A DNA stretch of 24,000 bases, taken from positions 65,041 to 89,040 of the forward strand of contig NZ_JAWXXL010000008.1 of NCBI RefSeq assembly GCF_034334985.1. Direction: 5' to 3'. Below, piece by piece: positions 1,015 to 19,418 of this stretch (positions are counted from its first letter, which is position 1; every line of letters starts with the position of its first letter). The position numbers and the translations under genes were made by a program. The DNA is from Acutalibacter intestini (GTDB lineage: Bacteria > Bacillota > Clostridia > Oscillospirales > Acutalibacteraceae). The notes below the pieces were generated by a model, which was given only the letters and a program-made list of their open reading frames with translations, did no database searches and had not been told where the DNA came from.

Positions 1015-2637
1015 TTACATATTTTCCGTTCTCGTCTTACCATCCTTAAATGTGATTTCTATTTCCTCTGCCGACTTCACATGGATGGTCGAGACCAGCC
1101 TGCGGGTCAGGATGTCATCGTATTCCATACCGCTTTCGGCAAACTGCCCGAGCAGTTCGTCAATTTCAGCCATGCGGGAGTCCGTGATGGCCCGGTTCTT
1201 TTGCTGGCTCTCTATGCCTGCCAGCCGCTGATTTAACTGTTCCAGCTCGTTCACAATATTGGTGAGGAGCAGTTCATATTTTGTAATGTCGTTTTCTTCC
1301 ATGCACCGGGCTACTAAGTCCTGTTTTTGCCGGGTCAGCTCCGTAATCCTAGCCCGGATATCTGCCTCGCCGCCGGGTATCTGGGGGGCCAGCGCCCGGT
1401 CCAGGTTTGCTTTGAGCAGTTCCATGTCAGCGCCCACATTTATGTACTGATTCATGATGCCGTTGACAATGGCGGTGTGGAGGGCTCCTTCTTCCAGCGT
1501 AGGGGACTCATTGCAAAACTGAGTACCGTAGTCCAGCCGTGTCCCGCACCGCCAGACAATTTTCTTCTTGCCCTTTTTTGCCCAGGTGGTTCGCCGGTAG
1601 GGGGAGCCGCATTTTCCACAGACCAGCAGCTCGCTGAGAGCGTATTTGCCCCGGTGCCTGCCCTCCAGCGGGTTCTTGGCTTTCTCCGTGGAAGCCCGCT
1701 TTGCCCTGCGCCGGGCGATTTCTTCCTGTACCTGCTGCCAGAGCTCCGGCTCGACGATGACCGGCAGGCAGTTGCTGACATAGTACTTGGCGCGTTCTCC
1801 GTTATTGACTTTGCTCCGTTCTGCGAACAGGCTGGGGCTAAATGTCTTTTGCAGGAGCGCGTCGCCCCGATATTTTTCATTTTGCAGAAGGGCCAGGATC
1901 ACCGTTGTGCTCCAAGTATCGCGGCCAAATGCTGTCTTGATGTGCATCCTTTCCAGCTTTTTCTTGATATCTCCGGGCGTCATGCCATCCAGATAATCCT
2001 TGTAGATCATCCGCACAACCCCAGCCTGTTCCTCGTCAATGACAGGCTCTCCATCTCCGCCTTTTTTGAACCCGAACATAGCCGGACTTACGCTGACCTT
2101 GCCCTGGGCGTAGGCCATGGCGTTGCCCCGGATGATGTTCTCCCGGATGGACTCGGACTCTGACTGGGAGAAGGCGCTGAAGAAGGCCAGCATCAACTCC
2201 GAGGTCATCTGGCTGGTATCCAGATTCTCCTTTTCAAATATTACGGTAACGCCCCTTTCCCGCAGGTTCCGCACCGTGCGCATGATGTCCACTGTGTTCC
2301 GGCCAAATCGGGACACCGACTTTACCAGAATCAGGTCAATGCGCCCCTCCCGGCAGTGCCGGAGCATCCGCTTGAACTCGTCCCGCTTTTTCATAGACAC
2401 GCCTGAGATGCCCTCGTCTGCGAAGATATCAGCCATTTTCCAGTTGGGATTGCTGGCGATTTTCTCGGTGTAATAGGTCTTCTGCACCTCAAAGCTGTTG
2501 AGCTGCTCGTCCTTGTCGGTGGAAACCCGGCAGTAAGCGGCCACCCGCAGTTTCTTCTTGGCAGGCTGGCCGGGGGCGGGGCCTTGGGTCTTGGCGGGTA
2601 TCACGGTGACGTTTTTTGCGTGAGCGTTCATGTTCAT
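1015..2637 (-). CDS. Large serine recombinase (resolvase catalytic domain, recombinase domain, zinc ribbon, coiled coil).
   Basis: N-terminus VAAYCRVSTDKDEQLNSFEVQ with the catalytic Ser; KSVSRFGRNTVD; YAQGK...FGF recombinase block; CGKCGSPY...WRCG zinc ribbon. The start overlaps the upstream stop (ATGA at 2634-2637). Confidence 0.95.
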   Translation of the reverse strand: MNMNAHAKNVTVIPAKTQGPAPGQPAKKKLRVAAYCRVSTDKDEQLNSFEVQKTYYTEKIASNPNWKMADIFADEGISGVSMKKRDEFKRMLRHCREGRIDLILVKSVSRFGRNTVDIMRTVRNLRERGVTVIFEKENLDTSQMTSELMLAFFSAFSQSESESIRENIIRGNAMAYAQGKVSVSPAMFGFKKGGDGEPVIDEEQAGVVRMIYKDYLDGMTPGDIKKKLERMHIKTAFGRDTWSTTVILALLQNEKYRGDALLQKTFSPSLFAERSKVNNGERAKYYVSNCLPVIVEPELWQQVQEEIARRRAKRASTEKAKNPLEGRHRGKYALSELLVCGKCGSPYRRTTWAKKGKKKIVWRCGTRLDYGTQFCNESPTLEEGALHTAIVNGIMNQYINVGADMELLKANLDRALAPQIPGGEADIRARITELTRQKQDLVARCMEENDITKYELLLTNIVNELEQLNQRLAGIESQQKNRAITDSRMAEIDELLGQFAESGMEYDDILTRRLVSTIHVKSAEEIEITFKDGKTRTENM

Positions 2638-3485
2638 TTTTTCCTTTCTGTTACGATATGTCTATTCTGCAATTCCAGCCCCAGCGAACCGTCTGGACGC
2701 AGCAGTATTCTCCTGACCGTGCGTTGGAACAGCTCTCTCTGAAAATCCAGGGATGGTTTGGACTTTGCGAAGTCAGCCATGAGCCTTGCCGTGATAGACT
2801 CCCGGCTGTCAATGGCCTGGTAATTCGCCGCCCCGATTTCAAATACCATCTTGATGAGCTCACCCTCGCTGGCCTGCCTACTGTCCAGCGCACGGTGAAA
2901 CTCGTTTAAGAGACGCTTGCTTTCCAGGATGCGCACTTCCGGGGCAGGATCGTCCGGGGAGGCAGTGTCAGGCGTGTTAATCAGGGTGTTCATGATAGTG
3001 ATAACCTGTGCCTTGAATCCATCATCCGACGGCCTCACCGACCAGCCGCAGTCCGGGCATTTCCAAGAGACCGGCTCGGCGGACCGGGAATCTGTTCGGC
3101 GGGTGACCTTTTTGCCGCATTTGGCGCAGACTGTAAGCTCTTTAAACAGCTTGGTGTCATCGTCTATGGTGAGCTTGTTGGTATTCGTCTGCTCCTTTTT
3201 GAGATTGGCCGCTACAAACTGTTCTCTTTGGATGAGGGCTGGGTATTCGTCTGAACCGATATACCTGCTGTTCTCCAAAATGCGCTTGATGCGGGCCTTG
3301 TCCCAACTCGTCTTTCCGGGGCTGTACTCCAACTGCCGGTGGGTCAGGTCCTCCGCTATCACCTTGAGGGAATCTCCGGCGCAGTAGCGGTGGAATATCT
3401 CCCCCACGATCTGGCTCTCGTCGGGGTGGGGGACCGGCTGTCCGGCCTCAAACTTGTATCCGTAGGGAATGTAGCGGTTACTCAT
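2634..3485 (-). CDS. Recombinase-domain and zinc-ribbon protein with no resolvase catalytic domain (truncated serine-recombinase paralogue).
   Basis: Begins directly with IPYGYKFEAG, the start of the recombinase domain. Also has ENSRYIGSDEYPALI and CAKCGKK...WKCPDCGW (zinc ribbon). No RVS(T/S) catalytic block. ATGA overlaps at both ends (3482-3485 and 2634-2637). Confidence 0.85.
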   Translation of the reverse strand: MSNRYIPYGYKFEAGQPVPHPDESQIVGEIFHRYCAGDSLKVIAEDLTHRQLEYSPGKTSWDKARIKRILENSRYIGSDEYPALIQREQFVAANLKKEQTNTNKLTIDDDTKLFKELTVCAKCGKKVTRRTDSRSAEPVSWKCPDCGWSVRPSDDGFKAQVITIMNTLINTPDTASPDDPAPEVRILESKRLLNEFHRALDSRQASEGELIKMVFEIGAANYQAIDSRESITARLMADFAKSKPSLDFQRELFQRTVRRILLRPDGSLGLELQNRHIVTERKK

Positions 3486-5014
3486 GATGGGATTTCCTCC
3501 GTAAGCTCCAGACCGCAGTGCAGCCGGAAGGTCAGTTTATTGCCTGCCGTGGGGATGATTTTCTCTACTATCTCGTCAAATTGGTCAATGTCAAACTCTG
3601 TGGGCACACCCGGCCAACTGGAAAGAATGGCCTGCAATTCCTCCAGCTTTTCCATAGCTGAGTGGGATTGCAGGCCATGTAGTTTTTTGTTTCGCTCTGC
3701 TGACAGCTTTTTCCGCTGGGAGGTAAGGCTTTCGTTCTGGATACGGAACTCGTCCGGGCTGATGAAACCCTTGCTGCTGAGTTTTTGCAGAGTGAGGGAT
3801 TTGTCATTAAGAGCGGCGATGGATTGGTTCAGCTCGAAGAGCTTGGTTTCGACAGTATTTTGACAATACTCTACTTCCATCAGCAGCCCACAAATCCCCG
3901 AAAGCAGTTGTTCATAGCAGAGAAATAGTTTTATGTTGAAATTTGCAATTGTCGTGCATATCGTTTCTTCTCTAAAGCGATAGGGCGAACAGGTGTCTGA
4001 GCCGTTCGCTCTATTGGGACAAATCCAATAAGATTTATCATTCGCTTGTAAGTGCCTAAAGAATCTGCCACAATCAGGGCATACTATTTTGTGCGTAAAT
4101 ATATGTCTCTTACGATTCGAATTACCGTTTTTGGATTTTAGCATAACCTGTGTGAGCTCAAAATCTCTTTTTGATATAATTGGAGGGTGTGAATTTGCAA
4201 CATAGTATTGTGGGCATTCGCCTCTATTTTTCCGTTTATAGTGCTTTAGAGAATCAGCCGTATAATGTTTTTGCAGTAAAGCATCGCCAATGTACCTCTC
4301 GTTATCTAAAAGCTGACGAACCGTTGAATACAGCCACTTTCTTCCGTGATGTGCCGTGATTCTTTTTTCATTCAGCCTCATAGCTATCTTTCCTATACTC
4401 TCGCCAGAAAGATATAATTTGAAAATATTTCTAACAATTTCTGCTTCTTCTGGGACGATTTCAAGTTGACTGTTAGATAACTTGTATCCATATGGAGTAC
4501 GTGTTCCGAAAAATGTGCCGTTCTCCATTCTTTTTTGATAGCTCCACTGTATGTTCCTAGATATTGACAGGCTCTCCTCCTGCGCCGCCATAGCGTACAT
4601 GGTGAGCTGCATCTCTCCAAGCACCTGGGAGGTATCAAAGCCCTGCTCCTCAAAAACAACGACCACGCCCAAGTCCTTCAGCTCGCGCGTGGTCTCTAAC
4701 AGCTCTGTTGTATTTCTGGCAAACCGGGACACGGATTTCACCAGCACCCGCTGGATCTTCCCCTCCCGGCAGTCTGCCAGCATCCGCTTGAACTCGTCCC
4801 GCTTGTCGATGCTGGTGCCTGTTATGCCCGCATCGGCATATAGGTCGTACAGCTCCCAGTCGGGGTTGTCGTTTATCAGCTTGGTGTAGTAAGCAATTTG
4901 AGAGTGATAGGAGTTGAGCTGGTCCGCTGAATCAGTGGATACCCTGCAGTAAGCCGCAACGGATTCCTTTTCGCTGGGCAGTACTATGGGGTCTATTCTC
5001 TGCACCTGCAGCAT
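3482..5014 (-). CDS. Large serine recombinase.
   Basis: VAAYCRVSTDSADQLNSYHSQ, KSVSRFARNTTE, TPYGYKL, DNERYIGDALLQK, CPDCGRFF...WICP zinc ribbon. ATG 5014 lies about 10 nt after AAAGGAGA; the ORF-track start GTG 5023 abuts the SD and is less likely. Confidence 0.93.
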   Translation of the reverse strand: MLQVQRIDPIVLPSEKESVAAYCRVSTDSADQLNSYHSQIAYYTKLINDNPDWELYDLYADAGITGTSIDKRDEFKRMLADCREGKIQRVLVKSVSRFARNTTELLETTRELKDLGVVVVFEEQGFDTSQVLGEMQLTMYAMAAQEESLSISRNIQWSYQKRMENGTFFGTRTPYGYKLSNSQLEIVPEEAEIVRNIFKLYLSGESIGKIAMRLNEKRITAHHGRKWLYSTVRQLLDNERYIGDALLQKHYTADSLKHYKRKNRGECPQYYVANSHPPIISKRDFELTQVMLKSKNGNSNRKRHIFTHKIVCPDCGRFFRHLQANDKSYWICPNRANGSDTCSPYRFREETICTTIANFNIKLFLCYEQLLSGICGLLMEVEYCQNTVETKLFELNQSIAALNDKSLTLQKLSSKGFISPDEFRIQNESLTSQRKKLSAERNKKLHGLQSHSAMEKLEELQAILSSWPGVPTEFDIDQFDEIVEKIIPTAGNKLTFRLHCGLELTEEIPS

Positions 5015-5085
5015 CTCTGTCACTCTCCTTTCGTCTGGTTACCAACACACTACCACACCCGGCCCCGAAAATCCATTCACGAATG

Positions 5086-5615: not shown

Positions 5616-6091
5616 AACTTCACGTTCCTTTCTGTTTTTCTGCTCATGATACACAGGCGGGGATAGATACAGTTCGCCTATCCCCGTAGCGTCTATCATG
5701 AAAAATAGAAATCTGATTTTAGTTCTCTGGCCATATTTGCCCTGCGCCCCCGGCCCCGGGAATGTATCGGACGGATGCTGGCTAACACCCTCATGGTGAT
5801 CTCAACCCCGCGCGGTTCTCGCCCGGCTGCCCCCATTGCGTGAGTCTGTGGCTGGACAGAAGTTCTCAGCCTCCTGCTGGTCCTCGCCGGGATGGGGCCC
5901 GCCTATCCCCTGGGCCAATCGGCCCGCTGGCTTGCAGTCAGAAGGTGATGTATCCGATACATTGCGTATTTTGTTGTCAAAGTCCGCAAGAGCTACAGAG
6001 GGCGTTTCCGGGGTGAATTATGGCCTTTTGGCATCCCCGGAAAATGTCCCTCTATATATTCCGTACATTTTCGGGGCTAAAATTGCCCCCC

Positions 6092-6511
6092 TCAAGAAAA
6101 TTTCTCGCATATTTTTCTGAGGGCAACTTCTCCGCGCTCTATACTCCGGGATATTGTTGCTGGGTTACAGCCTTCTGAACGGGCAATTTCAGCCTTGCTC
6201 ATACCCAAAAAGTAGTAGGCAATAAGGCGTGACCGCTGCTTTTCCGGCAAGGACTGCAAACCCTTATATAGAAGCTCTCTCATATTGCTCTGCTCCAGAA
6301 TTTCCTCCGGGAGCGGTCCTTCTGCCGGGAACTCCCGAATCTCATTCATCAGTTCCAGCGAGTACATGGCCTTGTGGCGGTATGTACGGATGCGCAGAGC
6401 ATCCTCGGCCCGGGCAAGCTCTTGCAGGAGGTCAGCCACCTCATCGGGAACTTGTACCATAACATCGTGAGTGTAGTTCGGGTAGTATTTCCGCAGATTA
6501 ATTTCTTTCAT
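6092..6511 (-). CDS. Sigma-70 region-4 / ECF-like HTH regulator of the conjugative-transposon type.
   Basis: LPEKQRSRLIAYYFLGMSKAEIARSEGCNPATISRSIERG is a classic region-4 HTH. ATG 6511 follows GGAGAG with a 6-nt spacer. Confidence 0.8.
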   Translation of the reverse strand: MKEINLRKYYPNYTHDVMVQVPDEVADLLQELARAEDALRIRTYRHKAMYSLELMNEIREFPAEGPLPEEILEQSNMRELLYKGLQSLPEKQRSRLIAYYFLGMSKAEIARSEGCNPATISRSIERGEVALRKICEKFS

Positions 6512-6522
6512 TTTGCTCTCTC

Positions 6523-6560
6523 CAATCTGATTTTTGTTGTTGTGAACCAAAATCAGATTG
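6523..6560. promoter_or_regulatory. Perfect 12-bp inverted repeat (CAATCTGATTTT, 14 nt, AAAATCAGATTG) abutting the RBS of the sigma-like gene.
   Basis: Arms at 6523-6534 and 6549-6560, read directly. It could be an operator or a 5'-UTR hairpin. Confidence 0.4.
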
Positions 6561-6589
6561 AAAAGGCGGGGAGCGGCAGCGGGGTCGGA

Positions 6590-6660
6590 CCGTAAAAAAG
6601 GGCATAAAAAGAGCCTGTATGCATTTCCTGGATTTATCCAGAAAGTGTATACAGGCTTCT
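6590..6660 (-). terminator. Rho-independent terminator downstream of agrB.
   Basis: 9-bp stem AGCCTGTAT/ATACAGGCT (6612-6620 and 6649-6657) with an inner CTGGAT/ATCCAG pairing. On the minus strand it is followed by CTCTTTTTATGCCCTTTTTT. A second hairpin, CCACTGC/GCAGTGG, lies at 6702-6723. Confidence 0.55.
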
Positions 6661-6803
6661 TTATGATTCTGAAAGGCTAGGACACAAGAGGAAAGGCCCG
6701 GCCACTGCTGAAAAACGCAGTGGTCAGGAAGATGGCTTTAGCAAAACAGGATTGAATTGGCGAAAAGATAGGAAACCGAAAGTATCAATACCCATTTTGC
6801 TGA

Positions 6804-7400
6804 TTATTGTCCCTCCCTTTCATGGTAACGCTTTTTGAGAAAAAGGCATGGAAACTGGAGCGCTGCCGAGAGAATTAGTCCAGAGCCAACCGAAACAGCC
6901 GCCCAGGTCTGATGAAAAGCCGTCAGCACAGCGCATATGGCAATGGTGATCATGGATAGAACGATGGTAATTTTCTTAAAGACCTTCTTTTCGTTCTGCG
7001 TCAGCCTCCGGCCCTCTGAATCTATGGGGCTGAACACAATAATTTGAGCAGCCGCAAGTAGTAGCACCGCACACCACCAGCCATATCCCGATGTATCAAG
7101 GACCAAGCGTATTCCTAACAGGAATGCGGTTAATACTAAGGTTGACACGATGCCGCAGAGCACAGAAGACTGGAAGTGGAACCCTCCGCAAAACTTGCGG
7201 ATCAAGATAAAGGGGATAATCAGCAGAATCCCCTCTACAACCATGTGGAGGAACATGCTGATAATCAGCACCAGACCCAAAGGACACAGAGTGAAAAGAA
7301 AACTGTAGATGCCGTACTCGTAGAGTTCCACGTCACTAGCAGAAATGGCTCCTGCCTGCAGGAGCCATTTTGCAGTGACGGCGGCTAACCGCTTGATCAC
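6804..7400 (-). CDS. agrB: AgrB-family autoinducer-processing membrane peptidase.
   Basis: Polytopic membrane protein with IRKFCGGFHFQSSVLC. The His, and a Cys 7 residues later, have the same spacing as the catalytic His/Cys pair of S. aureus AgrB (RRHAHGAHAPSSFWC, from memory). GTG 7400 overlaps the agrD stop (GTGA). Confidence 0.88.
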   Translation of the reverse strand: MIKRLAAVTAKWLLQAGAISASDVELYEYGIYSFLFTLCPLGLVLIISMFLHMVVEGILLIIPFILIRKFCGGFHFQSSVLCGIVSTLVLTAFLLGIRLVLDTSGYGWWCAVLLLAAAQIIVFSPIDSEGRRLTQNEKKVFKKITIVLSMITIAICAVLTAFHQTWAAVSVGSGLILSAALQFPCLFLKKRYHEREGQ

Positions 7401-7552
7401 TTGAGCTTGCTGAACCGGCGCAGGGTCTCGGGGGCTTTGGGCTGGAATACAACGCAAGAAGAGGCTGAATTGGCGCCCACAAACAGTACTGCAGATAAGA
7501 AAAAAGCGGTAAGCCCAGCAAGACGGGAAACGGCAGCTTTAATAGTTGTCAT
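7397..7552 (-). CDS. agrD: AgrD-type cyclic (thio)lactone autoinducing-peptide precursor, 51 aa.
   Basis: MTTIKAAVSRLAGLTAFFLSAVLFVGANSASSCVVFQPKAPETLRRFSKLK: a hydrophobic leader, a single Cys followed by C-x4-P-x2-PE, and a charged tail. GGAGG lies 8 nt upstream of ATG 7552. The gene sits immediately upstream of agrB and overlaps it. Confidence 0.8.
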   Translation of the reverse strand: MTTIKAAVSRLAGLTAFFLSAVLFVGANSASSCVVFQPKAPETLRRFSKLK

Positions 7553-7583
7553 TGAGATGACCTCCTTGTTATATGATAAATTT

Positions 7584-7655
7584 ATTATAATACATCTCAG
7601 CAAAAAAAGATAGGGCCTTTGCATGAACGGTTAATAATCAATTAAAAATGGTATT
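7584..7655 (-). promoter_or_regulatory. agrD-agrB promoter with paired LytTR-type boxes.
   Basis: Minus strand reads AATACCATTTTTAATTGATTATTAACCGTTCATGCAAAG, gccc, TATCTT (weak -35), 17 nt, TATAAT. ACCGTTCAT fits the LytTR 9-mer consensus [TA][AC][CA]GTTN[AG][TG]. A second ACC-box sits exactly 21 bp upstream. Confidence 0.55.
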
Positions 7656-7820
7656 TTTTGGAGAAAAAAGCCAAAATACACTTGTTTGAATGTGAAAGTT
7701 CGTTATAAAACAAGAAAAAGCAAAAAGCACACATTGCAGTGTGTAGTTAAATTATAATTTGTCGTTTTCTCATTCCAACCATGCTAAAATATGTGTATGC
7801 CTTTAGGAAAGGAGAAACTA

Positions 7821-8150
7821 ATGGAATTCAATCGAGCTGAGGTGGGTCGCAGGATAGCAAAGCGGCGTAAGGAATTGGGCGTAAAACAAAATGTGCTTGC
7901 AGAGAAACTGGGGTATCATAAAAATCATCTCTCCGGAATTGAACACGGTCGGATTGCTCCGAGCATGGATTTGTTTGTAGGAATATGCAAGGAACTAAAT
8001 GTGTCTCCGAACTACCTACTAGAGGGTGCCATGCACCCAGAAAATGTTCCTCTTGACATTGTGGCTGACATAAACAGATGCAGGGATGAGGATAAGGAGG
8101 TCATCGCAGAAATCGTTAAAATCTACGTTGACAAAGCTGAAAAAACGTGA
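7821..8150 (+). CDS. XRE-family HTH transcriptional regulator.
   Basis: IAKRRKELGVKQNVLAEKLGYHKNHLSGIEHGRIAPSMDLFVGICKELNVSPNYLL. ATG 7821 follows AGGAGA. Confidence 0.9.
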   Translation: MEFNRAEVGRRIAKRRKELGVKQNVLAEKLGYHKNHLSGIEHGRIAPSMDLFVGICKELNVSPNYLLEGAMHPENVPLDIVADINRCRDEDKEVIAEIVKIYVDKAEKT

Positions 8151-8175
8151 CATCCATGCACAAATAAGGTATAAT
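8147..8175 (+). promoter_or_regulatory. Sigma-A-like promoter for the response-regulator/kinase pair.
   Basis: GTGACA (8147-8152), 17 nt, TATAAT (8170-8175), overlapping the end of the XRE gene. Confidence 0.45.
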
Positions 8176-8199
8176 ATATCTTGAGGAGGGATGTCTCCA

Positions 8200-8916
8200 A
8201 TGAGGATAGTGTTCTGTGATGACGATGTAACCGTTATGGATAAGCTGGAGAAGTATCTTCGGGCATATTTCAGTGAGAATAAATTGAAACAGCCTGAGTA
8301 CGAAGCTTACATCAATGGAGAGGAATTACTGAATTCAGACAAGAGAATTGATATAGCTTTTCTTGATGTGGAGATGCCAGGTATAGACGGTATCACAGTT
8401 GGAGCTAGGTTAAAGGCCCGGTTTCCCTATGTGAAAATCATAATACTTACGTCATTTTCGGACTACTTGGACGAAGCTATGAAATTTCATGTGTTTCGCT
8501 ACTTATCAAAGCCGCTTGAGAAAAGTCGCTTATATAGAAACATGAAAGAGGCATTGTATCAAATCAGTGTTGATACAAAACCTGTGTTGATTGAAACCGC
8601 CGATGAGTCCGTCACAAGATTTGCCGATGAAGTGATTATGGTAGAGGCAAACAAGCACAAGGTGAAAGTTTTTACTGTGGATAAGGTATACGATTCCGTT
8701 CAACCGATGAAACATTGGGAAACTCTTTTGGAAATAGGAAGTTTCTACCATACCCATCGCAGCTACATTGTAAATATGAAGTTTGTTCGCTCCTTCGATG
8801 CAACTACACTCAAGATGGGTTCACCAAGCGGTGAGAACCATCGGGCGTATATGGCCCGCAGAAAGTATCCAGGATTCAAGAGTGCATATGTGCGGTTTCT
8901 GGAGGCGATGAAATAA
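8200..8916 (+). CDS. LytTR-family response regulator (AgrA-like).
   Basis: Receiver domain (MRIVFCDDD..., IAFLDVEMPGIDG, IIILTS) followed by a LytTR DNA-binding domain (FYHTHRSYIVNMKFV). ATG 8200 lies 10 nt after GAGGAGG; ATG 8191 abuts the SD. Confidence 0.93.
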   Translation: MRIVFCDDDVTVMDKLEKYLRAYFSENKLKQPEYEAYINGEELLNSDKRIDIAFLDVEMPGIDGITVGARLKARFPYVKIIILTSFSDYLDEAMKFHVFRYLSKPLEKSRLYRNMKEALYQISVDTKPVLIETADESVTRFADEVIMVEANKHKVKVFTVDKVYDSVQPMKHWETLLEIGSFYHTHRSYIVNMKFVRSFDATTLKMGSPSGENHRAYMARRKYPGFKSAYVRFLEAMK

Positions 8917-10220
8917 TGCAAACAATCACCTTTATCTGTGTCTACTTAGTAGAGGGGATAACTGCTTGGCAGTATTTTTCCTCCCTGTTTATTCCGAAAA
9001 AGAAGCCCATCATACGAATTTCGCTATTTATACTTGGGTATGCACTCGGTTGTCTGCTATTCAATTTATCTATAATTTGGATTAATACAATTTTCTTTAC
9101 CCTGCTCAATTTATTACTGCTTAAGTCTTTCTATATTTGTTCCTGGAAAAGCTGCATTTATCATACTGTGTTGCTGACTTGCCTTACTTTAGGCACAGAA
9201 ATTCTCGTGGAGTTTCTCCTTGGAATGCTTTTCGGAGGGGCTGAGAAATATCAGGACAGCCTTCCAATTCTAGTTTTTCTCTGTGTTTTTAGTAAACTAC
9301 TCTATTACACACTGACAAAACTGTGCATCCGCCTTTCACCCAAATCATTGACAAATATACACGATGCAGGCCCCATCGCGCTTTTGCTAGGCAGTTTCTC
9401 GTTTTCAACGATTTTCATTCTGCTCATTATGGCGTACTCAGCGCTGTATTGTAATTTGCCGCCCTTTATTGAAACCTTGATGATGGTAGGAGCGCTGATC
9501 CTTCTTCTTTCTGCCTTGGCAATATTTGCAGGATATCAGTATAGTCAGAAGCTTAATAAGGAGAATCTAGAACTCCAGTTGATAAAGCAGAAGGATCAGG
9601 TGGAAGGAGAATATTTCAGTGCTCTTGAGGATCAATATGAACGTCAGCAGGTCCTGCTCCACGATTTACGGCGGCATCTTACTGCCATCAAAGAATTTGC
9701 GCTGGAGAATGAAGACCAACAGGTGGTGCACTATGTCTCCAATTTACAAAACCTCCCAGCGCTTCAGCGAAAGCTGAAATATTGTGAGAACCTAATGCTA
9801 AATGTGGTTCTAGCCCGTTATAAGGAACTAAGCGATGAGAAAGGCATCCAGTTTTCCGCAGATGTCCGAGATGTAGATATGGATTTTTTGGCGCAAAACG
9901 ACATAACCGCTCTGTTCGGGAATTTGCTGGAGAACGCTGTGGAGTCTGCTGAAAATTCAGAAAAGCCCTATATTGAGCTTATAATTGGCTCCAACGGAGA
10001 TACACATTCTGATGCTAAGCTCTTTGTTTCCCTGACAAACTCCTGCGACAATGAGCCACTTAAAGACAGTGCCGGTAATTTTCTGACACACAAACTAAAC
10101 AAGGAGTGGCATGGAATGGGGCAGAAAAGTATTAAGAGAGCCGTGAAGAAATATGGCGGTACTTTAGAACACCAATATTGCAAGGAAACTCATCTGTTCC
10201 ACACGTCCATTTTATTTTGA
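8916..10220 (+). CDS. AgrC-type (HPK10) sensor histidine kinase with GHKL ATPase.
   Basis: About 6 N-terminal transmembrane helices, H-box LLHDLRRHLTAI, N-box NLLENAVES, G-box HGMGQKSIKRAVKKYGG. ATGA overlap with the regulator gene. Confidence 0.9.
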   Translation: MQTITFICVYLVEGITAWQYFSSLFIPKKKPIIRISLFILGYALGCLLFNLSIIWINTIFFTLLNLLLLKSFYICSWKSCIYHTVLLTCLTLGTEILVEFLLGMLFGGAEKYQDSLPILVFLCVFSKLLYYTLTKLCIRLSPKSLTNIHDAGPIALLLGSFSFSTIFILLIMAYSALYCNLPPFIETLMMVGALILLLSALAIFAGYQYSQKLNKENLELQLIKQKDQVEGEYFSALEDQYERQQVLLHDLRRHLTAIKEFALENEDQQVVHYVSNLQNLPALQRKLKYCENLMLNVVLARYKELSDEKGIQFSADVRDVDMDFLAQNDITALFGNLLENAVESAENSEKPYIELIIGSNGDTHSDAKLFVSLTNSCDNEPLKDSAGNFLTHKLNKEWHGMGQKSIKRAVKKYGGTLEHQYCKETHLFHTSILF

Positions 10221-14112: not shown

Positions 14113-15221
14113 TGAGGAAGATAGACAAAAACGACCCGTATGAGAAGTATTTGTTTAGTGACCGGCCGCCCTGGAAACCCACCACACTAAAGCAGAAAGC
14201 CTTGTGGGTATCCGCCCTGGTCTTTTGGCTGATTGCCGCCTGCACCCTTTTCGCTGTTAAAAATCAGGAGCTGATGACCCCGCAGGTTACCACTGTGAGT
14301 GCCGAAAACAGCTACAACTCAGGTTCCCCGGCAAAGCTGCCTCTTGACTGCCTGCAGTTGGACAGCGAAGGTGGGATGCACCTTTACGAGATTTATGAGG
14401 GTACCGGCTGGGAGGCTGGGGTGCGGGTCCGGGAGGTACAGGGGTTCTCCTTGGACGAAGACAATGTACTCCTGGACAATGGCGGCTGGGGGGAGTATGT
14501 CCAGTATGCCTCAAAGACTCTGACCGATGGCGAGCTGGTGGAGGTGATTCGGGGCGGGGAAAAAGCCGCTGACCACTGGCTTGCCGTGTTCCCGGAGGAC
14601 GCGCCGGAGCCAGATCATCTCCCTAGTGGCGTGGAGATCGTGGCCCAGGACGGCAACGCCCTACTGCTGTCCGTGGAATCTGACCAGCAGCCCTTCATGG
14701 AGGGCCGGGCCAAGAGCCTTGTGCCGGAGCTTTCCGGGGCCAGGATCTATAGCTTGTCTGCCATGGAGCAGTTCCAGGGCAATTTCATCTGCATGGGCCT
14801 GCTGCTCATGATATTTGTCATCCTGTTCTGGATGTGGGGCTACGCCTGGTATGAGAATCAGCTTGACAAAAGGTATCCCCGGATGTGGCCCATGAGCGTT
14901 GGCATCAGCGTGGTGCTTTTGGGCGGCATAGCGGTGATCCTGCACTTTGTGAACCTGCCCTCCTCCCTGTTGCCGCCGGAGCAGATCACGGACCTGTGGT
15001 ATTACGGCCACGATTTTGGCCAGGCTTTCCCAGCCCTGGAGCGCTTTGGGGAGCAGTTTGAGAGAGGGAACCGGCTGGTTATAATGCAGACGGTCGCACT
15101 CTTTTGCAGTCTTGGGTTTATGGCCGTGGGCGCGGGGATCGGCTACCTGATTGCGCGGGTGGAAGAGTTTTATATGGAGGAGATCTGCGTTAAGAGGATG
15201 CGCCGGGGGGAATGGCGGTAA
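14109..15221 (+). CDS. Hypothetical polytopic membrane protein coupled to the ABC permeases.
   Basis: ATGA overlap at 14109-14112. One N-terminal transmembrane helix, an extracytoplasmic segment of about 170 aa, then 4-5 C-terminal transmembrane helices. No motif recognised. Confidence 0.7.
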   Translation: MMRKIDKNDPYEKYLFSDRPPWKPTTLKQKALWVSALVFWLIAACTLFAVKNQELMTPQVTTVSAENSYNSGSPAKLPLDCLQLDSEGGMHLYEIYEGTGWEAGVRVREVQGFSLDEDNVLLDNGGWGEYVQYASKTLTDGELVEVIRGGEKAADHWLAVFPEDAPEPDHLPSGVEIVAQDGNALLLSVESDQQPFMEGRAKSLVPELSGARIYSLSAMEQFQGNFICMGLLLMIFVILFWMWGYAWYENQLDKRYPRMWPMSVGISVVLLGGIAVILHFVNLPSSLLPPEQITDLWYYGHDFGQAFPALERFGEQFERGNRLVIMQTVALFCSLGFMAVGAGIGYLIARVEEFYMEEICVKRMRRGEWR

Positions 15222-15245
15222 CTGACGGAGGATGAAAAAGGGGAG

Positions 15246-15276
15246 GACGCCGCAATTTTTAGCGGCGCCCTTTTTT
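15246..15276. terminator. Bidirectional terminator hairpin between convergent genes.
   Basis: CGCCGC (15248-15253), aattttta, GCGGCG (15262-15267), then TTTTTT on the plus strand. On the minus strand the hairpin is followed by TCCTCCCCTTTTTC. Confidence 0.6.
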
Positions 15277-18163
15277 ACAGCCCATACTTTTTCTTAACAT
15301 ACTGGAGAAAATGCTCGATCTCATATTTCGCCTCATCGGGGAGTTTTCTTGCCGTTACCCACTTCGGGATGACAACGTGAGCCGTTCCTTCCTCCTGCCT
15401 GTGAAACGTCGCCTTTTCCCGCTCAAAGTCCAGCTTGAACAGCTTATAACCCTCCGTCACCCAAGCCTCCGCCATGGCGTTCTGGTCGGGCCGGGTGTAC
15501 CAGCGGGAGGTGTGCTTTCTTGCCGATGGGGATAGATCGCGGCCCAGGATCGTTTCAATCTCCTTAAATTTGAGGGTGATAGAGGCGTCGTTCTGTTTTG
15601 CAAACCATTTTTTCAAAGGCATGAACGGCCAGTTCGACCGTAGCGGACCAGGGGCTTTCTCTCTGGCATCCGGGCCGAGGGCAGTGGTCATCTCCTGCGC
15701 TCCATCCACCAGTTCCCTGTGAGTGTAAACGCTGACGTCTCCCAGCACTTCATGAACCGTCAGCTCGTTAGGTCTGCACAGCTCATGCACATAGGCAAAA
15801 TTGGAGGGCAGCGCGGGGCCTGTCGGGTCGATCAGCATCACTTCTCTGGGGTGGTCCGGCAGAATCGGCCTGCCGCAGTAGTAGCAGCGGCCTTGCTGGC
15901 GTTTCCATACTTCTTGATATTTTCCGGTTGCCCCAACGATATTTTTTCGCTCATGGCGGCTCTGAAAGTATTCTATATCAATGTAGGGATTTTTGTTCAG
16001 CAGAATTTTCTCGTAACACTCCACCAGCAAAGTTTCAGAAATCTTTCGGACACGCACACTCCTGTTGTGGGGCAGACTGTATACCGATTTTCCCTTTGAA
16101 TCTGTGTACCAATACTTTGCCCGTAGTTTCGGCGGGTTCATCCGAGGGTGCCGGGCCAAAGCCGCTTTCCACAGGCAGCTCTCCACCAGTTCATCAATCT
16201 CCCGGAACGCGGCCCTAGCGTTAGAGTAGTGGTGATAGGAGGCCCAGCCGGAGAGCTTGCGGTTGATAGAGTCTATCAGGTTCTTCTGAGAGCGATTGTG
16301 GGTGAGTATCAGCTCCTGCAAACCGGCCTTGATCCGGGCTACCGCCGATTGTGAGGGTGTGAGGTGTATATGACCGTTTTCCTTGACGTAATGTCGGGAG
16401 ATGAAATCAAAGCCCTGATAAACGGAAACCACCTTTGTTTTTTCTTCTGAGACCTGCAGACCCCGCTCCGCCAGAAAACTCCGGGTGATTCCTACCATCT
16501 TCTCAGCGTCCTCTCTGCTCTTTGCTGACAGGAAAATGTCGTCCGCAAACCTGACAAGATTTCCGTTCGCGTAATCAGAAACAGGCATACCATTATATAA
16601 GTGCTTGTATATGTACCCTTGCAGCCCGTCCAGTACATGATTTGCCATCATGGGCGAAAGGTTGGCTCCCAGCGATATGCCGGATTCTTCTTCCGGAAAC
16701 AACTCCCCGGCAAACACATGACCGGCGCGAAGAAATTCTCCCAACACTTTCTTATCCATAGGAATATGCTCCATAAGCCAAGTACGCTGTATGTTTGAAT
16801 AATATGCCTTTACATCTATGACAGCAACCCACTTGGGCGGATTTAGCCCCTGCAGGACTTCCAGAATGTAAGCGTGAGCGTCCAGTGCTGAACGCCCCAC
16901 TCGGAACGCAAAGGACTTCTTTTCTCCCCAAGCCTCCAACACCGGGGCCAGGGAAAAGCCGTAAAGTATCTGCATGGCCCGGTCAAAGTAGGTGGGAAGG
17001 CCATAGGTGCGCTCCCTGCCGGTTGGCTTGGACTTTACCTTAATATCCCGCAAGGGCTGGGCGTGGTAGTTCTTGGAGGTCAGCATGAGCGCGGCCCGCA
17101 TTTTCTCTCCAGGCGTTTTCCACTTGATACCATCTACCCCCGGCCCGGAATCGCCGCTGCACACCTTTCGTACTGCAAGCTGCTTGATTTCTGTCCGGCG
17201 GACTAACTGCATTTGCAGTGCCTTTATCTTCTCGCCGTCCCGCTGCTGTGCCGCCAATGCTATCACCTTTTGCAGGCTCGCCAGTATCTGCTCTGCGGCT
17301 GTCCAGTCCGTTTCCTCCCACAGCTCCCCCAGGAACGCATCGGGGAAGTCAATGGAGGGCCGCATGGCGCGCAGCTTGGAGCAATCGAACTTTTCCCCGG
17401 CCACATAGTTCAAGTGGATTTTCAGCTCAATGGGGCAGTGGTCAGAGCCGAAAATCTCCGTGTGATGTTCCACCCCGTGGATTCGTTTCGCCAGATTCCG
17501 GTCAACAAGAAAGTAATCCAGCCGCCAGCCATCATTCTTTGAACGCTTGTCAAAACGCTGGCTCCACCAGGTATAGGCCCCTTCCTGGTCAGGGTGCAGG
17601 AGCCGGAAAGCGTCCACGAATCCGCTGTCTAACAGGGTTTCCAGATTGTCCCTCTCCACTGAAATATATCCCTTTTCCTGGTCCTGGATGCGGGTGTTTT
17701 CCGGGAACACGTCTATGGCGCTGCGGGTGACATTGAAGTCCCCGCATATGATGACCGGCTTGTATTCTTTCAGTTTCTGTACGAAAACAAACAACGCCTC
17801 GTCCCACCGGCCGCGGTAGGCCCGACGTTCCGGGCTGTCCTGCGCGTTGGGGACATAGGCGTTGATAATATAAAATGCCTGGTATTCAAGTGTGATGATG
17901 CGGCCCTCCCGGTCCAGGCTCTCTTGGCCCAGGCCCATCCGCACATCCAGAGGTTCTTCCTTTGCCATCGTCAATACTCCGGCGTAGCCCTCCCGCTTCC
18001 CGGTTTCCCAATAGTGGCGGTATCCCGGCAGCACTTTAGGGCGGCGGTTGGTCCGAACCTCTTGCAGGCACAGGATGTCCGGCTGCAATGCCTCTATCGG
18101 TTCAAACCCATTTTTGTCTATGCAGGCCATAAGGCCGTTGACGTTCCAGCTTATGATTATCAC
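15275..18163 (-). CDS. Fusion protein: ExoIII/APE-type EEP nuclease, group-II-intron-like reverse transcriptase, X/maturase-like domain, degenerate HNH and a C-terminal extension (962 aa).
   Basis: aa 1-250: MIIISWNVNG, ILCLQEV, ICGDFNV, GWRLDYFLV, GSDHCPIEL (the full ExoIII motif set). aa 280-600: DWTAAEQILASLQ (RT0), GVDG, RTYGLPTYFDRAMQ, FAFRVGRSALDA, VIDVKAYYSNI, SLGANLSPMMANHVL, RFADDIF (codons at 16538-16549), EEKTKV..GFDFISRHY. aa 630-650: RKLSGWASYHHYS (X/GIIM-like). aa 759-797: CYYCGRP...EVMLIDP...SNFAYVHELC (HNH-like). The GTG start is supported by alignment to ExoIII N-termini (MK-ISWNVNG). Confidence 0.95.
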   Translation of the reverse strand: MIIISWNVNGLMACIDKNGFEPIEALQPDILCLQEVRTNRRPKVLPGYRHYWETGKREGYAGVLTMAKEEPLDVRMGLGQESLDREGRIITLEYQAFYIINAYVPNAQDSPERRAYRGRWDEALFVFVQKLKEYKPVIICGDFNVTRSAIDVFPENTRIQDQEKGYISVERDNLETLLDSGFVDAFRLLHPDQEGAYTWWSQRFDKRSKNDGWRLDYFLVDRNLAKRIHGVEHHTEIFGSDHCPIELKIHLNYVAGEKFDCSKLRAMRPSIDFPDAFLGELWEETDWTAAEQILASLQKVIALAAQQRDGEKIKALQMQLVRRTEIKQLAVRKVCSGDSGPGVDGIKWKTPGEKMRAALMLTSKNYHAQPLRDIKVKSKPTGRERTYGLPTYFDRAMQILYGFSLAPVLEAWGEKKSFAFRVGRSALDAHAYILEVLQGLNPPKWVAVIDVKAYYSNIQRTWLMEHIPMDKKVLGEFLRAGHVFAGELFPEEESGISLGANLSPMMANHVLDGLQGYIYKHLYNGMPVSDYANGNLVRFADDIFLSAKSREDAEKMVGITRSFLAERGLQVSEEKTKVVSVYQGFDFISRHYVKENGHIHLTPSQSAVARIKAGLQELILTHNRSQKNLIDSINRKLSGWASYHHYSNARAAFREIDELVESCLWKAALARHPRMNPPKLRAKYWYTDSKGKSVYSLPHNRSVRVRKISETLLVECYEKILLNKNPYIDIEYFQSRHERKNIVGATGKYQEVWKRQQGRCYYCGRPILPDHPREVMLIDPTGPALPSNFAYVHELCRPNELTVHEVLGDVSVYTHRELVDGAQEMTTALGPDAREKAPGPLRSNWPFMPLKKWFAKQNDASITLKFKEIETILGRDLSPSARKHTSRWYTRPDQNAMAEAWVTEGYKLFKLDFEREKATFHRQEEGTAHVVIPKWVTARKLPDEAKYEIEHFLQYVKKKYGL

Positions 18164-18169
18164 AAGTCC

Positions 18170-18610
18170 TCACTTCCTCGTTGGATATAAGGTGATGATC
18201 CTCCCCTTTGCCGGTATAGCACAATCCTTACTTTTATGGTTGTCCTTTCTTTGCGCATATTCCAATATAATTTCATCCAATTTGGCAAGCTGCTCCTCCC
18301 TTTCGTACTTATTCATCCCGCGCAGACTTCCGCCAAAGCACTTGTCCATAGCCGCCGGATCGGAATACTCTCTCCAAATTTTGACCCATTCATCTGCTGA
18401 ATCTGTTGTGCCTATATACAGCGGTTCCCCACCCCAGCTATCGTAAGCCAATAGCTGGCCTTTGGATTCCATAAGACGCAGGGTTAGCCTGCCTAAAGCT
18501 GGGAAATGCAGAATTTTCTTTTCAATCAAGTCACCCAAGGTGAATGGAGTTTGCTCCCTCCAATAGTCCTTTAGTATTTTCCGCTGGGTGAATGTAAGGA
18601 AATGTTTCAT
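18170..18610 (-). CDS. Hypothetical protein (146 aa), middle gene of the RT operon.
   Basis: ATG 18610 follows AAGAAAGGTGGA. The stop lies 6 nt before the RT start. MKHFLTFTQRKILKDYWREQTPFTLGDLIEKKILHFPALGRLTLRLMESKGQLLAY could be a winged helix; this is a guess. Confidence 0.65.
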   Translation of the reverse strand: MKHFLTFTQRKILKDYWREQTPFTLGDLIEKKILHFPALGRLTLRLMESKGQLLAYDSWGGEPLYIGTTDSADEWVKIWREYSDPAAMDKCFGGSLRGMNKYEREEQLAKLDEIILEYAQRKDNHKSKDCAIPAKGRIITLYPTRK

Positions 18611-18626
18611 GCAGTATCCACCTTTC

Positions 18627-19097
18627 TTAGGCCATGTTGATAATGGCAAGTCCATGAGTTCGCGCATAGTTGACTGTGTATGCTGTCCCGCCCGTGTTCT
18701 GCATCTGATAGCAGACACAGACACTGCTGCCATCTACCAAATGCCGGTTGCGTTTGTACATACACCCTGACGTGTACTCCTGGCTGACATATTTTACCTT
18801 GTTTGCCCTGCGCTTGATTTCTTCATATCGTGCCACATCTTCAGCTTTCCAGCCCTTTGTCTGATTCAAACATGGCAAAACTAAAATCAACCGCATATTT
18901 TGCAAGCTGCCATCCCGCAGGCGTAGGACTGTTTCGGCTGCGAGGGCATCAAATCCCAAAGCACCCCCAGCGCGATAGTTAATAATACCATTATTATACA
19001 GCTTTATTATAGTCTGTTCCAGCTTTTCTTCTATCAAGGCGTAATCTTTTTCTGGTATGTGTCTGTGGCCGGTAAAACAACAGATTTTTTCACGCAT
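18627..19097 (-). CDS. SLOG-superfamily protein (DUF1273, YpsA/YoqJ-like).
   Basis: ICCFTGHR, AGGALGFDALAAETV, LILVLPCLNQTKGW and KRNRHLVDGSSVCVCY..GGTAY match the YpsA/YoqJ block order, recalled from B. subtilis YpsA. GGAG lies 6 nt before ATG 19097. Confidence 0.78.
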   Translation of the reverse strand: MREKICCFTGHRHIPEKDYALIEEKLEQTIIKLYNNGIINYRAGGALGFDALAAETVLRLRDGSLQNMRLILVLPCLNQTKGWKAEDVARYEEIKRRANKVKYVSQEYTSGCMYKRNRHLVDGSSVCVCYQMQNTGGTAYTVNYARTHGLAIINMA

Positions 19098-19151: not shown

Positions 19152-19181
19152 AATATACCAAATGGGATATAATCTTGTCAA
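19152..19181 (-). promoter_or_regulatory. Promoter of the SLOG / unknown / EEP-RT operon.
   Basis: Minus strand: TTGACA (19181-19176), 18 nt, TATATT (19157-19152). A 7-bp inverted repeat, TATTCTA (19115-19121) and TAGAATA (19138-19144), lies just downstream, around the predicted +1. Confidence 0.5.
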
Positions 19182-19197
19182 GAAGGAGGAGGGTGCC

Positions 19198-19374
19198 ATG
19201 CCTAAATTTGTTCCGAGAAAACCGGAGAAGGAAGTAATTTCCATGCGCATTGCCGTTGACACCCTCCGGGAAGTCGATGAAAGGGCCTCTGAATATGGAC
19301 TGAGCCGAAACGAGCTGATGAATCAAATGATTGATTTTGCCCTTGCGAATATGGATGATGTTTCCACAGAGTAG
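19198..19374 (+). CDS. Ribbon-helix-helix (CopG/Arc-type) DNA-binding protein, 58 aa.
   Basis: EVISMRIAVDTLREVDERASEYGLSRNELMNQMIDFAL shows a beta-strand, helix, helix pattern. GGAGGAGG lies 6 nt upstream of ATG 19198. Confidence 0.8.
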   Translation: MPKFVPRKPEKEVISMRIAVDTLREVDERASEYGLSRNELMNQMIDFALANMDDVSTE

Positions 19375-19383
19375 CGTATAGGC

Positions 19384-19412
19384 AGAAAGCGCCGGTTTCC
19401 CCGGCGCTTTCT
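19384..19412. terminator. Bidirectional terminator hairpin.
   Basis: Perfect 12-bp stem AGAAAGCGCCGG / CCGGCGCTTTCT with loop TTTCC, between convergent genes. Confidence 0.75.
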
Positions 19413-19418
19413 TGCATT

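Follow-up and report, generated by a model that had tools for sequence, protein, structure and literature searches.

An ExoIII nuclease and a group II intron-type reverse transcriptase form a two-part module in gut Clostridia, with a possible role in DNA repair

Introduction

What does a nuclease of the exonuclease III (ExoIII) type do at the head of a reverse transcriptase (RT) in a bacterium? The question is raised by a single gene in a 24,000-nucleotide stretch of the Acutalibacter intestini genome (RefSeq assembly GCF_034334985.1, contig NZ_JAWXXL010000008.1, positions 65,041 to 89,040; hereafter the window, in whose numbering positions are given), which encodes a 962-amino-acid (aa) protein with both enzymes in one chain. 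An apurinic/apyrimidinic endonuclease (APE) followed by an RT is the layout of open reading frame (ORF) 2 in the long interspersed nuclear elements (LINEs) of eukaryotes. An earlier account of the same DNA, made from its letters and translated frames (the sequence-only reading), drew that parallel and proposed either a domesticated defense RT or a bacterial retroelement that primes on nicked target DNA.

We find that the gene belongs to a large, apparently undescribed family, one more among the lineages of RTs that were domesticated from group II introns. The distinctive rule of the family is that the RT is always accompanied by an AP endonuclease, and public annotation hides its members under the name "exodeoxyribonuclease III." As to what the pair does, we tentatively favor a part in DNA repair, and we weigh this below against a role in genetic conflict and against reverse transcription primed at a target site.

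Two Enzymes in One Frame

The gene is a single minus-strand frame that opens with GTG, contains no internal stop, and closes with the stop codon at 15275-15277 (Table 1). That one uninterrupted frame encodes two enzymes had been claimed already, and the claim is upheld by 114 full-length homologues and by a family member from a RefSeq isolate, both described below. Five Pfam domains were identified along the protein, namely Exo_endo_phos (PF03372; aa 4-242, E 2e-27), RVT_N, RVT_1, GIIM, and DUF7662 (E 6.5e-9). Of the profiles that the sequence-only reading had named for such a search, PF03372, RVT_1, and GIIM matched, whereas HNH had no Pfam match in the 962-aa protein; DUF7662 was found in addition. 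The full-length AlphaFold2 (AF2) model has a mean predicted local distance difference test score (pLDDT) of 80.

The nuclease is complete, as had been proposed. All of the quoted blocks of an endonuclease/exonuclease/phosphatase (EEP) enzyme are present (SWNVNG, aa 5-10; LCLQE, 31-35; GDFN, 141-144; WRLDY, 213-217; SDHCP, 240-244), and the ExoIII model TIGR00633 of NCBIfam scores 252 bits over aa 1-249 against a cutoff of 99, a match at the equivalog level. The catalytic residues N7, N9, E35, Y103, D142, N144, D216, D241, and H242 are invariant in an alignment of 20 sequences and at least 90% conserved in one of 115. The ExoIII domain of the AF2 model compares with Bacillus subtilis ExoA and Helicobacter pylori XthA at template modeling (TM) scores of 0.91-0.92 and 40% identity; when human APE1 is included, the superpositions span TM 0.82-0.92 at approximately 40% identity.

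With the housekeeping enzymes of the ExoIII/Xth/ExoA type the domain thus has in common a full-length match above the equivalog cutoff, the full catalytic set, and a near-identical predicted fold, and it is 42-47% identical to standalone ExoIII genes. It differs from them in belonging to a separate lineage marked by a few diagnostic changes (GDFN instead of GDLN, K206 instead of A, D121 instead of E, and a 2-aa insertion), which are subtle and spare the active site. A single split in a neighbor-joining tree sets all 79 RT-linked ExoIIIs, fused or split, apart from 76 standalone ExoIIIs, and the two exceptions to it are truncated family loci. The RT-linked nucleases therefore appear to be a lineage of their own, apart from the standalone ExoIII genes that were sampled.

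The second enzyme also answers to its earlier description as an RT of group II intron type with an X domain and an RFADD active site. The RFADD motif lies at aa 538-542 and the X-domain motif KLSGWASYHHYS at aa 636-647, and the RVT_N, RVT_1, and GIIM matches cover the corresponding regions. Residues R538, A540, D541, and D542 are invariant among 20 aligned sequences and conserved to at least 90% among 115; across the family the active site reads R-[F/Y]-A-D-D, with A540 invariant. The best match in the PDB is the T.el4h group IIB maturase (phmmer E 2e-81), onto which the AF2 model fits with TM 0.84-0.85 at 32-34% identity, and plasmid-borne genes annotated as ltrA share 30-35% identity with the RT. 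The intron-maturase model TIGR04416 of NCBIfam gives 221 bits, below its cutoff of 300. We conclude that this is an intron-less RT of the group II type whose polymerase residues are intact. In intron proteins, the RVT_N and X regions bind RNA.

A Degenerate HNH Domain and the C-Terminus

Residues 738-800 are homologous to the HNH endonuclease (En) domain of the T.el4h maturase, yet the catalytic EIHHILP of the maturase aligns to EVMLIDP, so that its His-His pair stands opposite M776-L777. A histidine at these positions was found in none of 16 aligned family members. Because the catalytic His-His is replaced in all aligned members while the four zinc ligands (Table 1) are invariant, the intron protein's own HNH nuclease appears to be dead and to persist solely as a zinc finger.

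Beyond it, an AF2 model of aa 735-962 (pLDDT 74, with means of 76-95 for 10-residue blocks over DUF7662) shows a zinc-finger unit, a disordered linker, an alpha-beta-alpha-alpha-beta-beta unit, and then a long helix. Foldseek searches with the C-terminal domain returned weak matches (E ≥ 0.02), all of them MarR-type winged-helix DNA binders. The zinc finger and DUF7662 are probably additional DNA-binding modules.

The last five residues, KKYGL (aa 958-962; 15278-15292), are almost invariant across the family even though synonymous sites vary, a pattern that suggests a docking or tail motif selected at the level of the protein. DUF7662 itself reaches further than the family. Distant proteins of 750-860 aa and approximately 30% identity combine an RT with DUF7662 and have no ExoIII and no GIIM match (P0217 at positions 6001-8394 of locus L193, P0197, P0211, P0219, P0231, P0241, and P0246), and the domain may mark a wider clade of domesticated RTs. 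P0217 lies among ribosomal-protein, GatC, and RNase HII genes on a chromosome that looks archaeal, in a housekeeping setting.

An Obligate Module, Fused or Split

A search of 5.8 billion proteins with the full-length sequence yielded, among the matches listed, 120 homologues of 39-97% identity, of which 114 are full length with the same architecture and were aligned. One full-architecture member, WP_217957900.1 in RefSeq, comes from the cultured Acutalibacter muris and is annotated only as an exodeoxyribonuclease III. In the two closest comparisons the ratio of nonsynonymous to synonymous substitution (dN/dS) is 0.06-0.14 in every domain, and in the closest pairs the linker behaves likewise; over all comparisons the functional domains range from approximately 0.06 to 0.19. 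With ratios of approximately 0.1, all domains are under purifying selection.

The sequence-only reading described the system as a fusion. The fusion is real, but it is not the defining trait and proves to be one state of an ExoIII + RT module. When 1.84 billion representative proteins were searched exhaustively with HMMER, using the part from the RT to the C-terminus (aa 255-962) as the query, two forms were recovered: approximately 20 fused representatives of 920-980 aa, in which the match starts near residue 250-300, and approximately 25 of 675-716 aa without ExoIII, in which it starts at residue 2-14. In three of three unfused representatives, a separate ExoIII gene of 249-266 codons lies directly upstream and overlaps the start of the RT gene by 4 nucleotides (nt). 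When metagenomes were scanned with an alignment specific to the C-terminal part of the family, 80 loci were obtained, of which approximately 21 are fused and approximately 25 cleanly split, the split ones mostly with an ATGA overlap. ExoIII was directly upstream in all 11 loci first flagged as lacking it and in the other disrupted loci inspected; the remaining loci of the 80 are interrupted by contig ends and were left out of the individual ExoIII check. Wherever the upstream DNA reaches far enough, ExoIII is present; the two enzymes make up an obligate module, which about half of the relatives encode as two separate genes.

Fused and split forms are intermixed on the RT tree, where parsimony requires at least 11 changes between them, and fusion and splitting of the module appear to have been recurrent events. 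The family is common in Clostridia of the human gut, the rumen, and the termite gut. A scan of species genomes with the full-length alignment found at least three fusion loci among the matches listed, most of which are ordinary ExoIII genes. Approximately 10 metagenomic copies are frameshifted or stopped within the RT (L118, L119, L122, L145, L147, L155, L157, L164, L165, and L171); the breaks are due either to errors in sequencing or to real decay of the module in part of the lineages.

Intron RNA and Flanking Sequence

If the RT descends from an intron protein, is the gene still the ORF of a mobile group II intron? The sequence-only reading held that it is not, and we agree. Rfam detected no group II intron RNA near the gene, either at the gathering threshold or at E ≤ 5, and no intron or other Rfam RNA beside the module in 11 related loci. 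There is also no room for a ribozyme, because the flanks are only 6 and 53 nt long: the upstream ORF ends at 18170, 6 nt ahead of the start, as had been stated, and the convergent ORF ends at 15221, 53 nt (not 54) past the stop. With these observations and the subthreshold TIGR04416 score, a mobile intron ORF is rejected.

The flanks give no sign of retrotransposition. In an all-against-all BLASTN comparison of upstream and downstream regions, similarity was found only between syntenic loci, and variants present on dozens to hundreds of contigs each occur in one stable context. We saw no repeats, no truncated copies, and no signal of multiple copies, within-genome copy number not having been measured.

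Relationship to Known Systems

The closest relatives with known structures are group II intron proteins such as T.el4h (PDB 6ME0/8FLI), with which the family shares RT0-RT7 fingers and palm, the X/thumb, a DNA-binding region, and an HNH-type zinc finger, at 30-35% sequence identity and TM 0.85. Those proteins have a ribozyme and live HNH histidines; the family here is without both and has gained ExoIII and DUF7662. Because it has kept the D/En remnant, it is much longer than the matched PDB chains of group II RTs, which are about 430 aa.

RTs that are phylogenetically near those of group II introns and lack the intron RNA structure are defined as group II-like, or G2L (PMC8632793). By that definition the ExoIII-RT would be of the G2L type, an assignment made without placement in a curated RT tree. 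It resembles G2L proteins generally, G2L4, PrimPol-RT/DRT7, and RT-Cas1 in being intron-less, group II-derived, and recruited to a function of the cell or of a mobile element, sometimes through fusion to another nucleic-acid enzyme. The repair RT G2L4 is distinguished by an RT3a "knot" with a 9-aa insertion. The ExoIII-RT does not belong to G2L4, since its active site is FADD and not YIDD.

Had this family been described before? The earlier statement that no class of bacterial RT is known to carry an N-terminal EEP nuclease stands as far as our sources reach, for none is named in PADLOC, in NCBIfam, or in the searchable literature. No family in PADLOC, NCBIfam, or Pfam describes an ExoIII-RT; the best PADLOC match is the generic "RT," with UG and DRT models matching only partially and weakly. 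The protein reaches only 25 of the 235 bits required by the retron model, and no adjacent template RNA was found by Rfam. In the searchable sources, no G2L, UG, or DRT class is credited with an ExoIII partner or with DUF7662, and the full-text literature that was searched, which leaves out most subscription journals, holds no description of a bacterial ExoIII/EEP-RT pairing.

The parallel with LINE ORF2 survives in part. The protein encoded by ORF2 (ORF2p) has the same layout of an N-terminal APE/EEP nuclease, an RT, and a Cys/His-rich C-terminal region, and its RT belongs to the same broad group II/non-LTR (long terminal repeat) superfamily, so that the order of APE and RT was correctly read. 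Kinship with LINEs was not borne out. No ORF2p occurs among the top 50 structural matches of the AF2 model, which are intron maturases and repair AP endonucleases; moreover, the module here also occurs as two genes and gives no evidence of copy-and-paste mobility. The likeness is convergent, APE and RT having been combined independently; the two are set apart here by structural and sequence similarity rather than by a LINE phylogeny. The APE + RT combination of LINE ORF2 would then have arisen independently in bacteria, by way of the replacement of a dead HNH, and the step from an intron protein to a nick-priming RT becomes experimentally approachable.

A Possible Role in DNA Repair

We suggest, as a tentative preference that falls somewhat short of an even chance, that the module serves DNA repair or damage tolerance in gut Clostridia, acting in base-excision-type gap filling or end joining on behalf of its carrier conjugative elements and of chromosomes. 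We take the RT to be descended from that of a group II intron, now free-standing and without an intron, and partnered obligately with a dedicated ExoIII paralogue (AP endonuclease/3′-5′ exonuclease). With the DNA held by the zinc finger and DUF7662, ExoIII would incise at an abasic site or a nick, or trim a damaged or blocked 3′ end, and so generate a clean 3′-OH; the RT could then extend this end as a strand-displacing polymerase on a template of DNA or RNA. The coupling of nicking to extension, the nature of the template, and the repair role itself are inferred.

We favor repair because the nuclease is of a conservatively repair type, because some copies lie on chromosomes and Y-family polymerases are repeatedly found in the vicinity, and because G2L4 and PrimPol-RT, both domesticated group II-like RTs, have repair roles. 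G2L4 RT functions in the repair of double-strand breaks (PMC11761039), and PrimPol-RT functions in the response to oxidative damage (PMC12439943). Among plain chromosomal loci, one copy lies beside rubrerythrin, rubredoxin, and CoA-disulfide-reductase-like genes and another beside glmS. In a survey of neighbors in 43 dereplicated contexts, a Y-family polymerase (IMS) was found within 5 kb in seven (approximately 16%), accompanied by conserved companions of approximately 150 and 85 aa (for example, L002 12120-14120, L001 12178-14540, L090 16433-18402, and L118 7194-8672). Should the ExoIII-RT prove to act in repair, it would broaden an emerging theme, the part of RTs in the repair of bacterial DNA; should it prime on nicks made by its own ExoIII, it could be a compact natural "nick-and-write" enzyme of interest for genome engineering.

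Several points weigh against this assignment. The activity is a predicted one. The hallmark of G2L4 is a conserved YIDD active site (PMC11761039), whereas the family here has FADD. No LexA or Cheo boxes were found upstream of the 43 modules, and hence no sign of SOS control. The winged-helix-like character of DUF7662 is a tentative reading of weak structural matches, and the RT and ExoIII trees are neighbor-joining trees without support values. The retention of RVT_N and X regions of the RNA-binding type makes an RNA partner or template conceivable. Finally, many copies occupy accessory regions of conjugative elements, beside genes for restriction-modification, AbiE, PemK, WYL, and XRE proteins, a placement that would suit a conflict system equally well.

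Such a system, in one or two genes on conjugative elements, is the strongest alternative, although we consider it the less likely account. It could take the form of defense, as an anti-phage or anti-plasmid RT with ExoIII as the effector or as a processor of cDNA; ExoIII has RNase H activity too. Or it could act in counter-defense or establishment, by repairing the DNA of the element when host defenses have damaged it after transfer. Within the accessory regions of integrative conjugative elements the module is patchily distributed and its neighborhoods vary. In the window there are XRE regulators and a YpsA/SLOG gene as well as three serine recombinases, and modules elsewhere adjoin helicase genes, genes for MmeI and type I restriction-modification, and genes for PemK, AbiE, and WYL proteins. 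A YpsA/SLOG gene is directly upstream in approximately 10 of the surveyed contexts. Many bacterial RTs derived from group II introns are, in addition, defense enzymes (PMC8632793). On the other hand, PADLOC recognizes only a generic RT and no specific model. There is no adjacent non-coding RNA or conserved non-coding region of the kind that accompanies retrons, DRT2, and DRT9, and the ExoIII is a conservative repair-type enzyme, not a divergent toxin. Some copies, furthermore, sit in plain chromosomal contexts, and the family is rare in viral contigs, with only approximately nine loci in IMG/VR and no full-length fusion found in the plasmid and phage reference sets PLSDB and INPHARED. The defense RT of the sequence-only reading is possible, but we do not favor it over DNA repair.

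Two further proposals, both of target-primed reverse transcription, give the RT an RNA template and seem to us improbable. In the first, ExoIII has replaced the dead HNH and would break the DNA at an abasic site or a nick, where RNA would then be copied by the RT, for RNA-templated repair or cDNA insertion. Were this true, bacteria would have a counterpart of LINE ORF2p that arose independently, and the origin of APE-RT retroelements from group II intron proteins could be studied in a tractable model. In the second, which is slightly more doubtful, ExoIII would nick a target and the RT would copy into that nick either a cellular transcript or the mRNA of the module, as a LINE-like retroelement or as a system for RNA-templated repair or insertion. 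In its favor are the order of APE and RT, with both active sites intact; the HNH that primes in mobile introns is dead and ExoIII is always present, as if substituting for it, and the RNA-binding RVT_N and X regions have been kept. The flanks argue otherwise. No conserved 5′ or 3′ flanks or elements resembling untranslated regions recur between contexts, each variant keeps to one stable context even where it is present on hundreds of contigs, and the gene in the window is flanked by only 6 nt on one side and a terminator on the other. Neither repeats nor truncated or multicopy forms were seen, with the reservation on copy number given above, and in structure the gene product is matched best by intron maturases and repair nucleases in place of ORF2p. 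The earlier proposal of a bacterial retroelement gains no support, the flanks being unconserved, the neighbors varying, and each variant having a single stable context.

An artifact or remnant (a misassembled exoA and intron ORF, or a dead intron protein beside a housekeeping nuclease) could be suspected from the frameshifts in some metagenomic relatives and from the NCBI annotation of members as exodeoxyribonuclease III only, but we regard it as scarcely credible and reject assembly artifact and pseudogene alike, given the more than 110 full-length clusters, which are independent of one another and come from several sources and assemblers, the RefSeq isolate protein, invariant catalytic residues, a dN/dS near 0.1 in every domain, and a separate lineage of RT-linked ExoIIIs.

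Genomic Context

Table 1. Positions of the ExoIII-RT gene, its domains, and other features of the window
Feature	Position	Strand	Remarks
Whole 962-aa gene	15275..18163	minus	ExoIII, group II-like RT, X domain, apparently dead HNH zinc finger, DUF7662
ExoIII/Xth AP-endonuclease domain, aa 1-250	17414..18163	minus	Catalytic residues all intact
Linker, aa 251-281	17321..17413	minus	Poorly conserved; stop/start overlap of split relatives falls here
RVT_N (RT0/N-terminal extension of group II-type RTs), aa 282-359	17087..17320	minus	Pfam
RVT_1, fingers and palm, aa 379-587	16403..17029	minus	FADD active site at 16538-16549
Maturase-specific X/thumb domain (GIIM), aa 609-685	16109..16339	minus	Pfam
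Degenerate HNH (En) domain, zinc finger	15764..15910	minus	C760, C763, H793, C796 invariant
DUF7662, aa 848-921	15401..15622	minus	Predicted alpha-beta-alpha-alpha-beta-beta fold resembling winged helix
C-terminal helix	15278..15364	minus	Ends in tail KKYGL
Bidirectional intrinsic terminator	15244-15271	either	Fills 53-nt gap to convergent gene
146-aa upstream gene	18170..18610	minus	ATG at 18610 with ribosome-binding site; no Pfam match
YpsA/SLOG-family gene	18627..19097	minus	First gene of the putative operon
Promoter-like site TTGACA-18-TATATT, extended -10	19152..19181	minus	Consensus match only; upstream of YpsA/146-aa/RT operon
Three tandem large serine recombinase genes	1015-5023	minus	Middle one 283 aa, no Resolvase catalytic domain match
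agr-like quorum-sensing set (cargo)	6804-10220		AgrB (6804-7457, minus), XRE regulator, LytTR, GHKL
LytTR response regulator (agr-like set)	8191-8916		
GHKL histidine kinase (agr-like set)	8916-10220		

The ExoIII-RT gene appears from its spacing to be the last of a three-gene operon, preceded by the YpsA/SLOG gene and by the 146-aa gene, to which its 6-nt gap would couple it translationally. A mechanical ORF call that starts the 146-aa gene at 18733 (187 aa) runs into the YpsA gene and probably overestimates its own length. The 146-aa gene is kept directly upstream only in the closest relatives of the RT, with 61% identity in locus L091 and 45% in L002.

No neighbor qualifies as an obligate partner, since none is universal: the 146-aa gene is confined to close relatives, the YpsA/SLOG gene occurs in approximately 20% of contexts, and the Y-family polymerase occurs in the 16% noted above. 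YpsA/SLOG is the commonest neighbor. It lies on the same strand as the module, often 20-134 nt away, and accompanies both fused and split forms (outside the window in L001 7394-7921, L090 6957-7433, L105, L142, L143, L160, L170, L104, and L097). It could be a facultative third component or merely part of a shared element backbone.

The window as a whole looks like an integrative conjugative or mobilizable element. Besides the genes of Table 1, it contains ABC permeases, XRE and Spo0A_C-type regulators, and a BlaR1-like protease, and relatives of the module in similar elements adjoin genes for a type IV secretion system coupling protein and for MmeI, PemK, AbiE, WYL, LexA-like, and ImmA-like proteins. 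In the related locus L091 the same arrangement of three recombinases, downstream of the RT, marks where a Clostridial integrative element ends.

The only Rfam match in the window at the gathering threshold is the pemK RNA motif (RF02913; 44 bits, 5791-5863, minus strand), in the gap that follows the recombinases. A subthreshold match to sroD (19327-19413, plus strand; 27 bits against a gathering threshold of 50, E 0.04) is probably due to chance; it lies upstream of the YpsA operon and overlaps a small ribbon-helix-helix-like ORF at 19162-19374. A kinase like the GHKL protein of the window is also found near the RT in L090.

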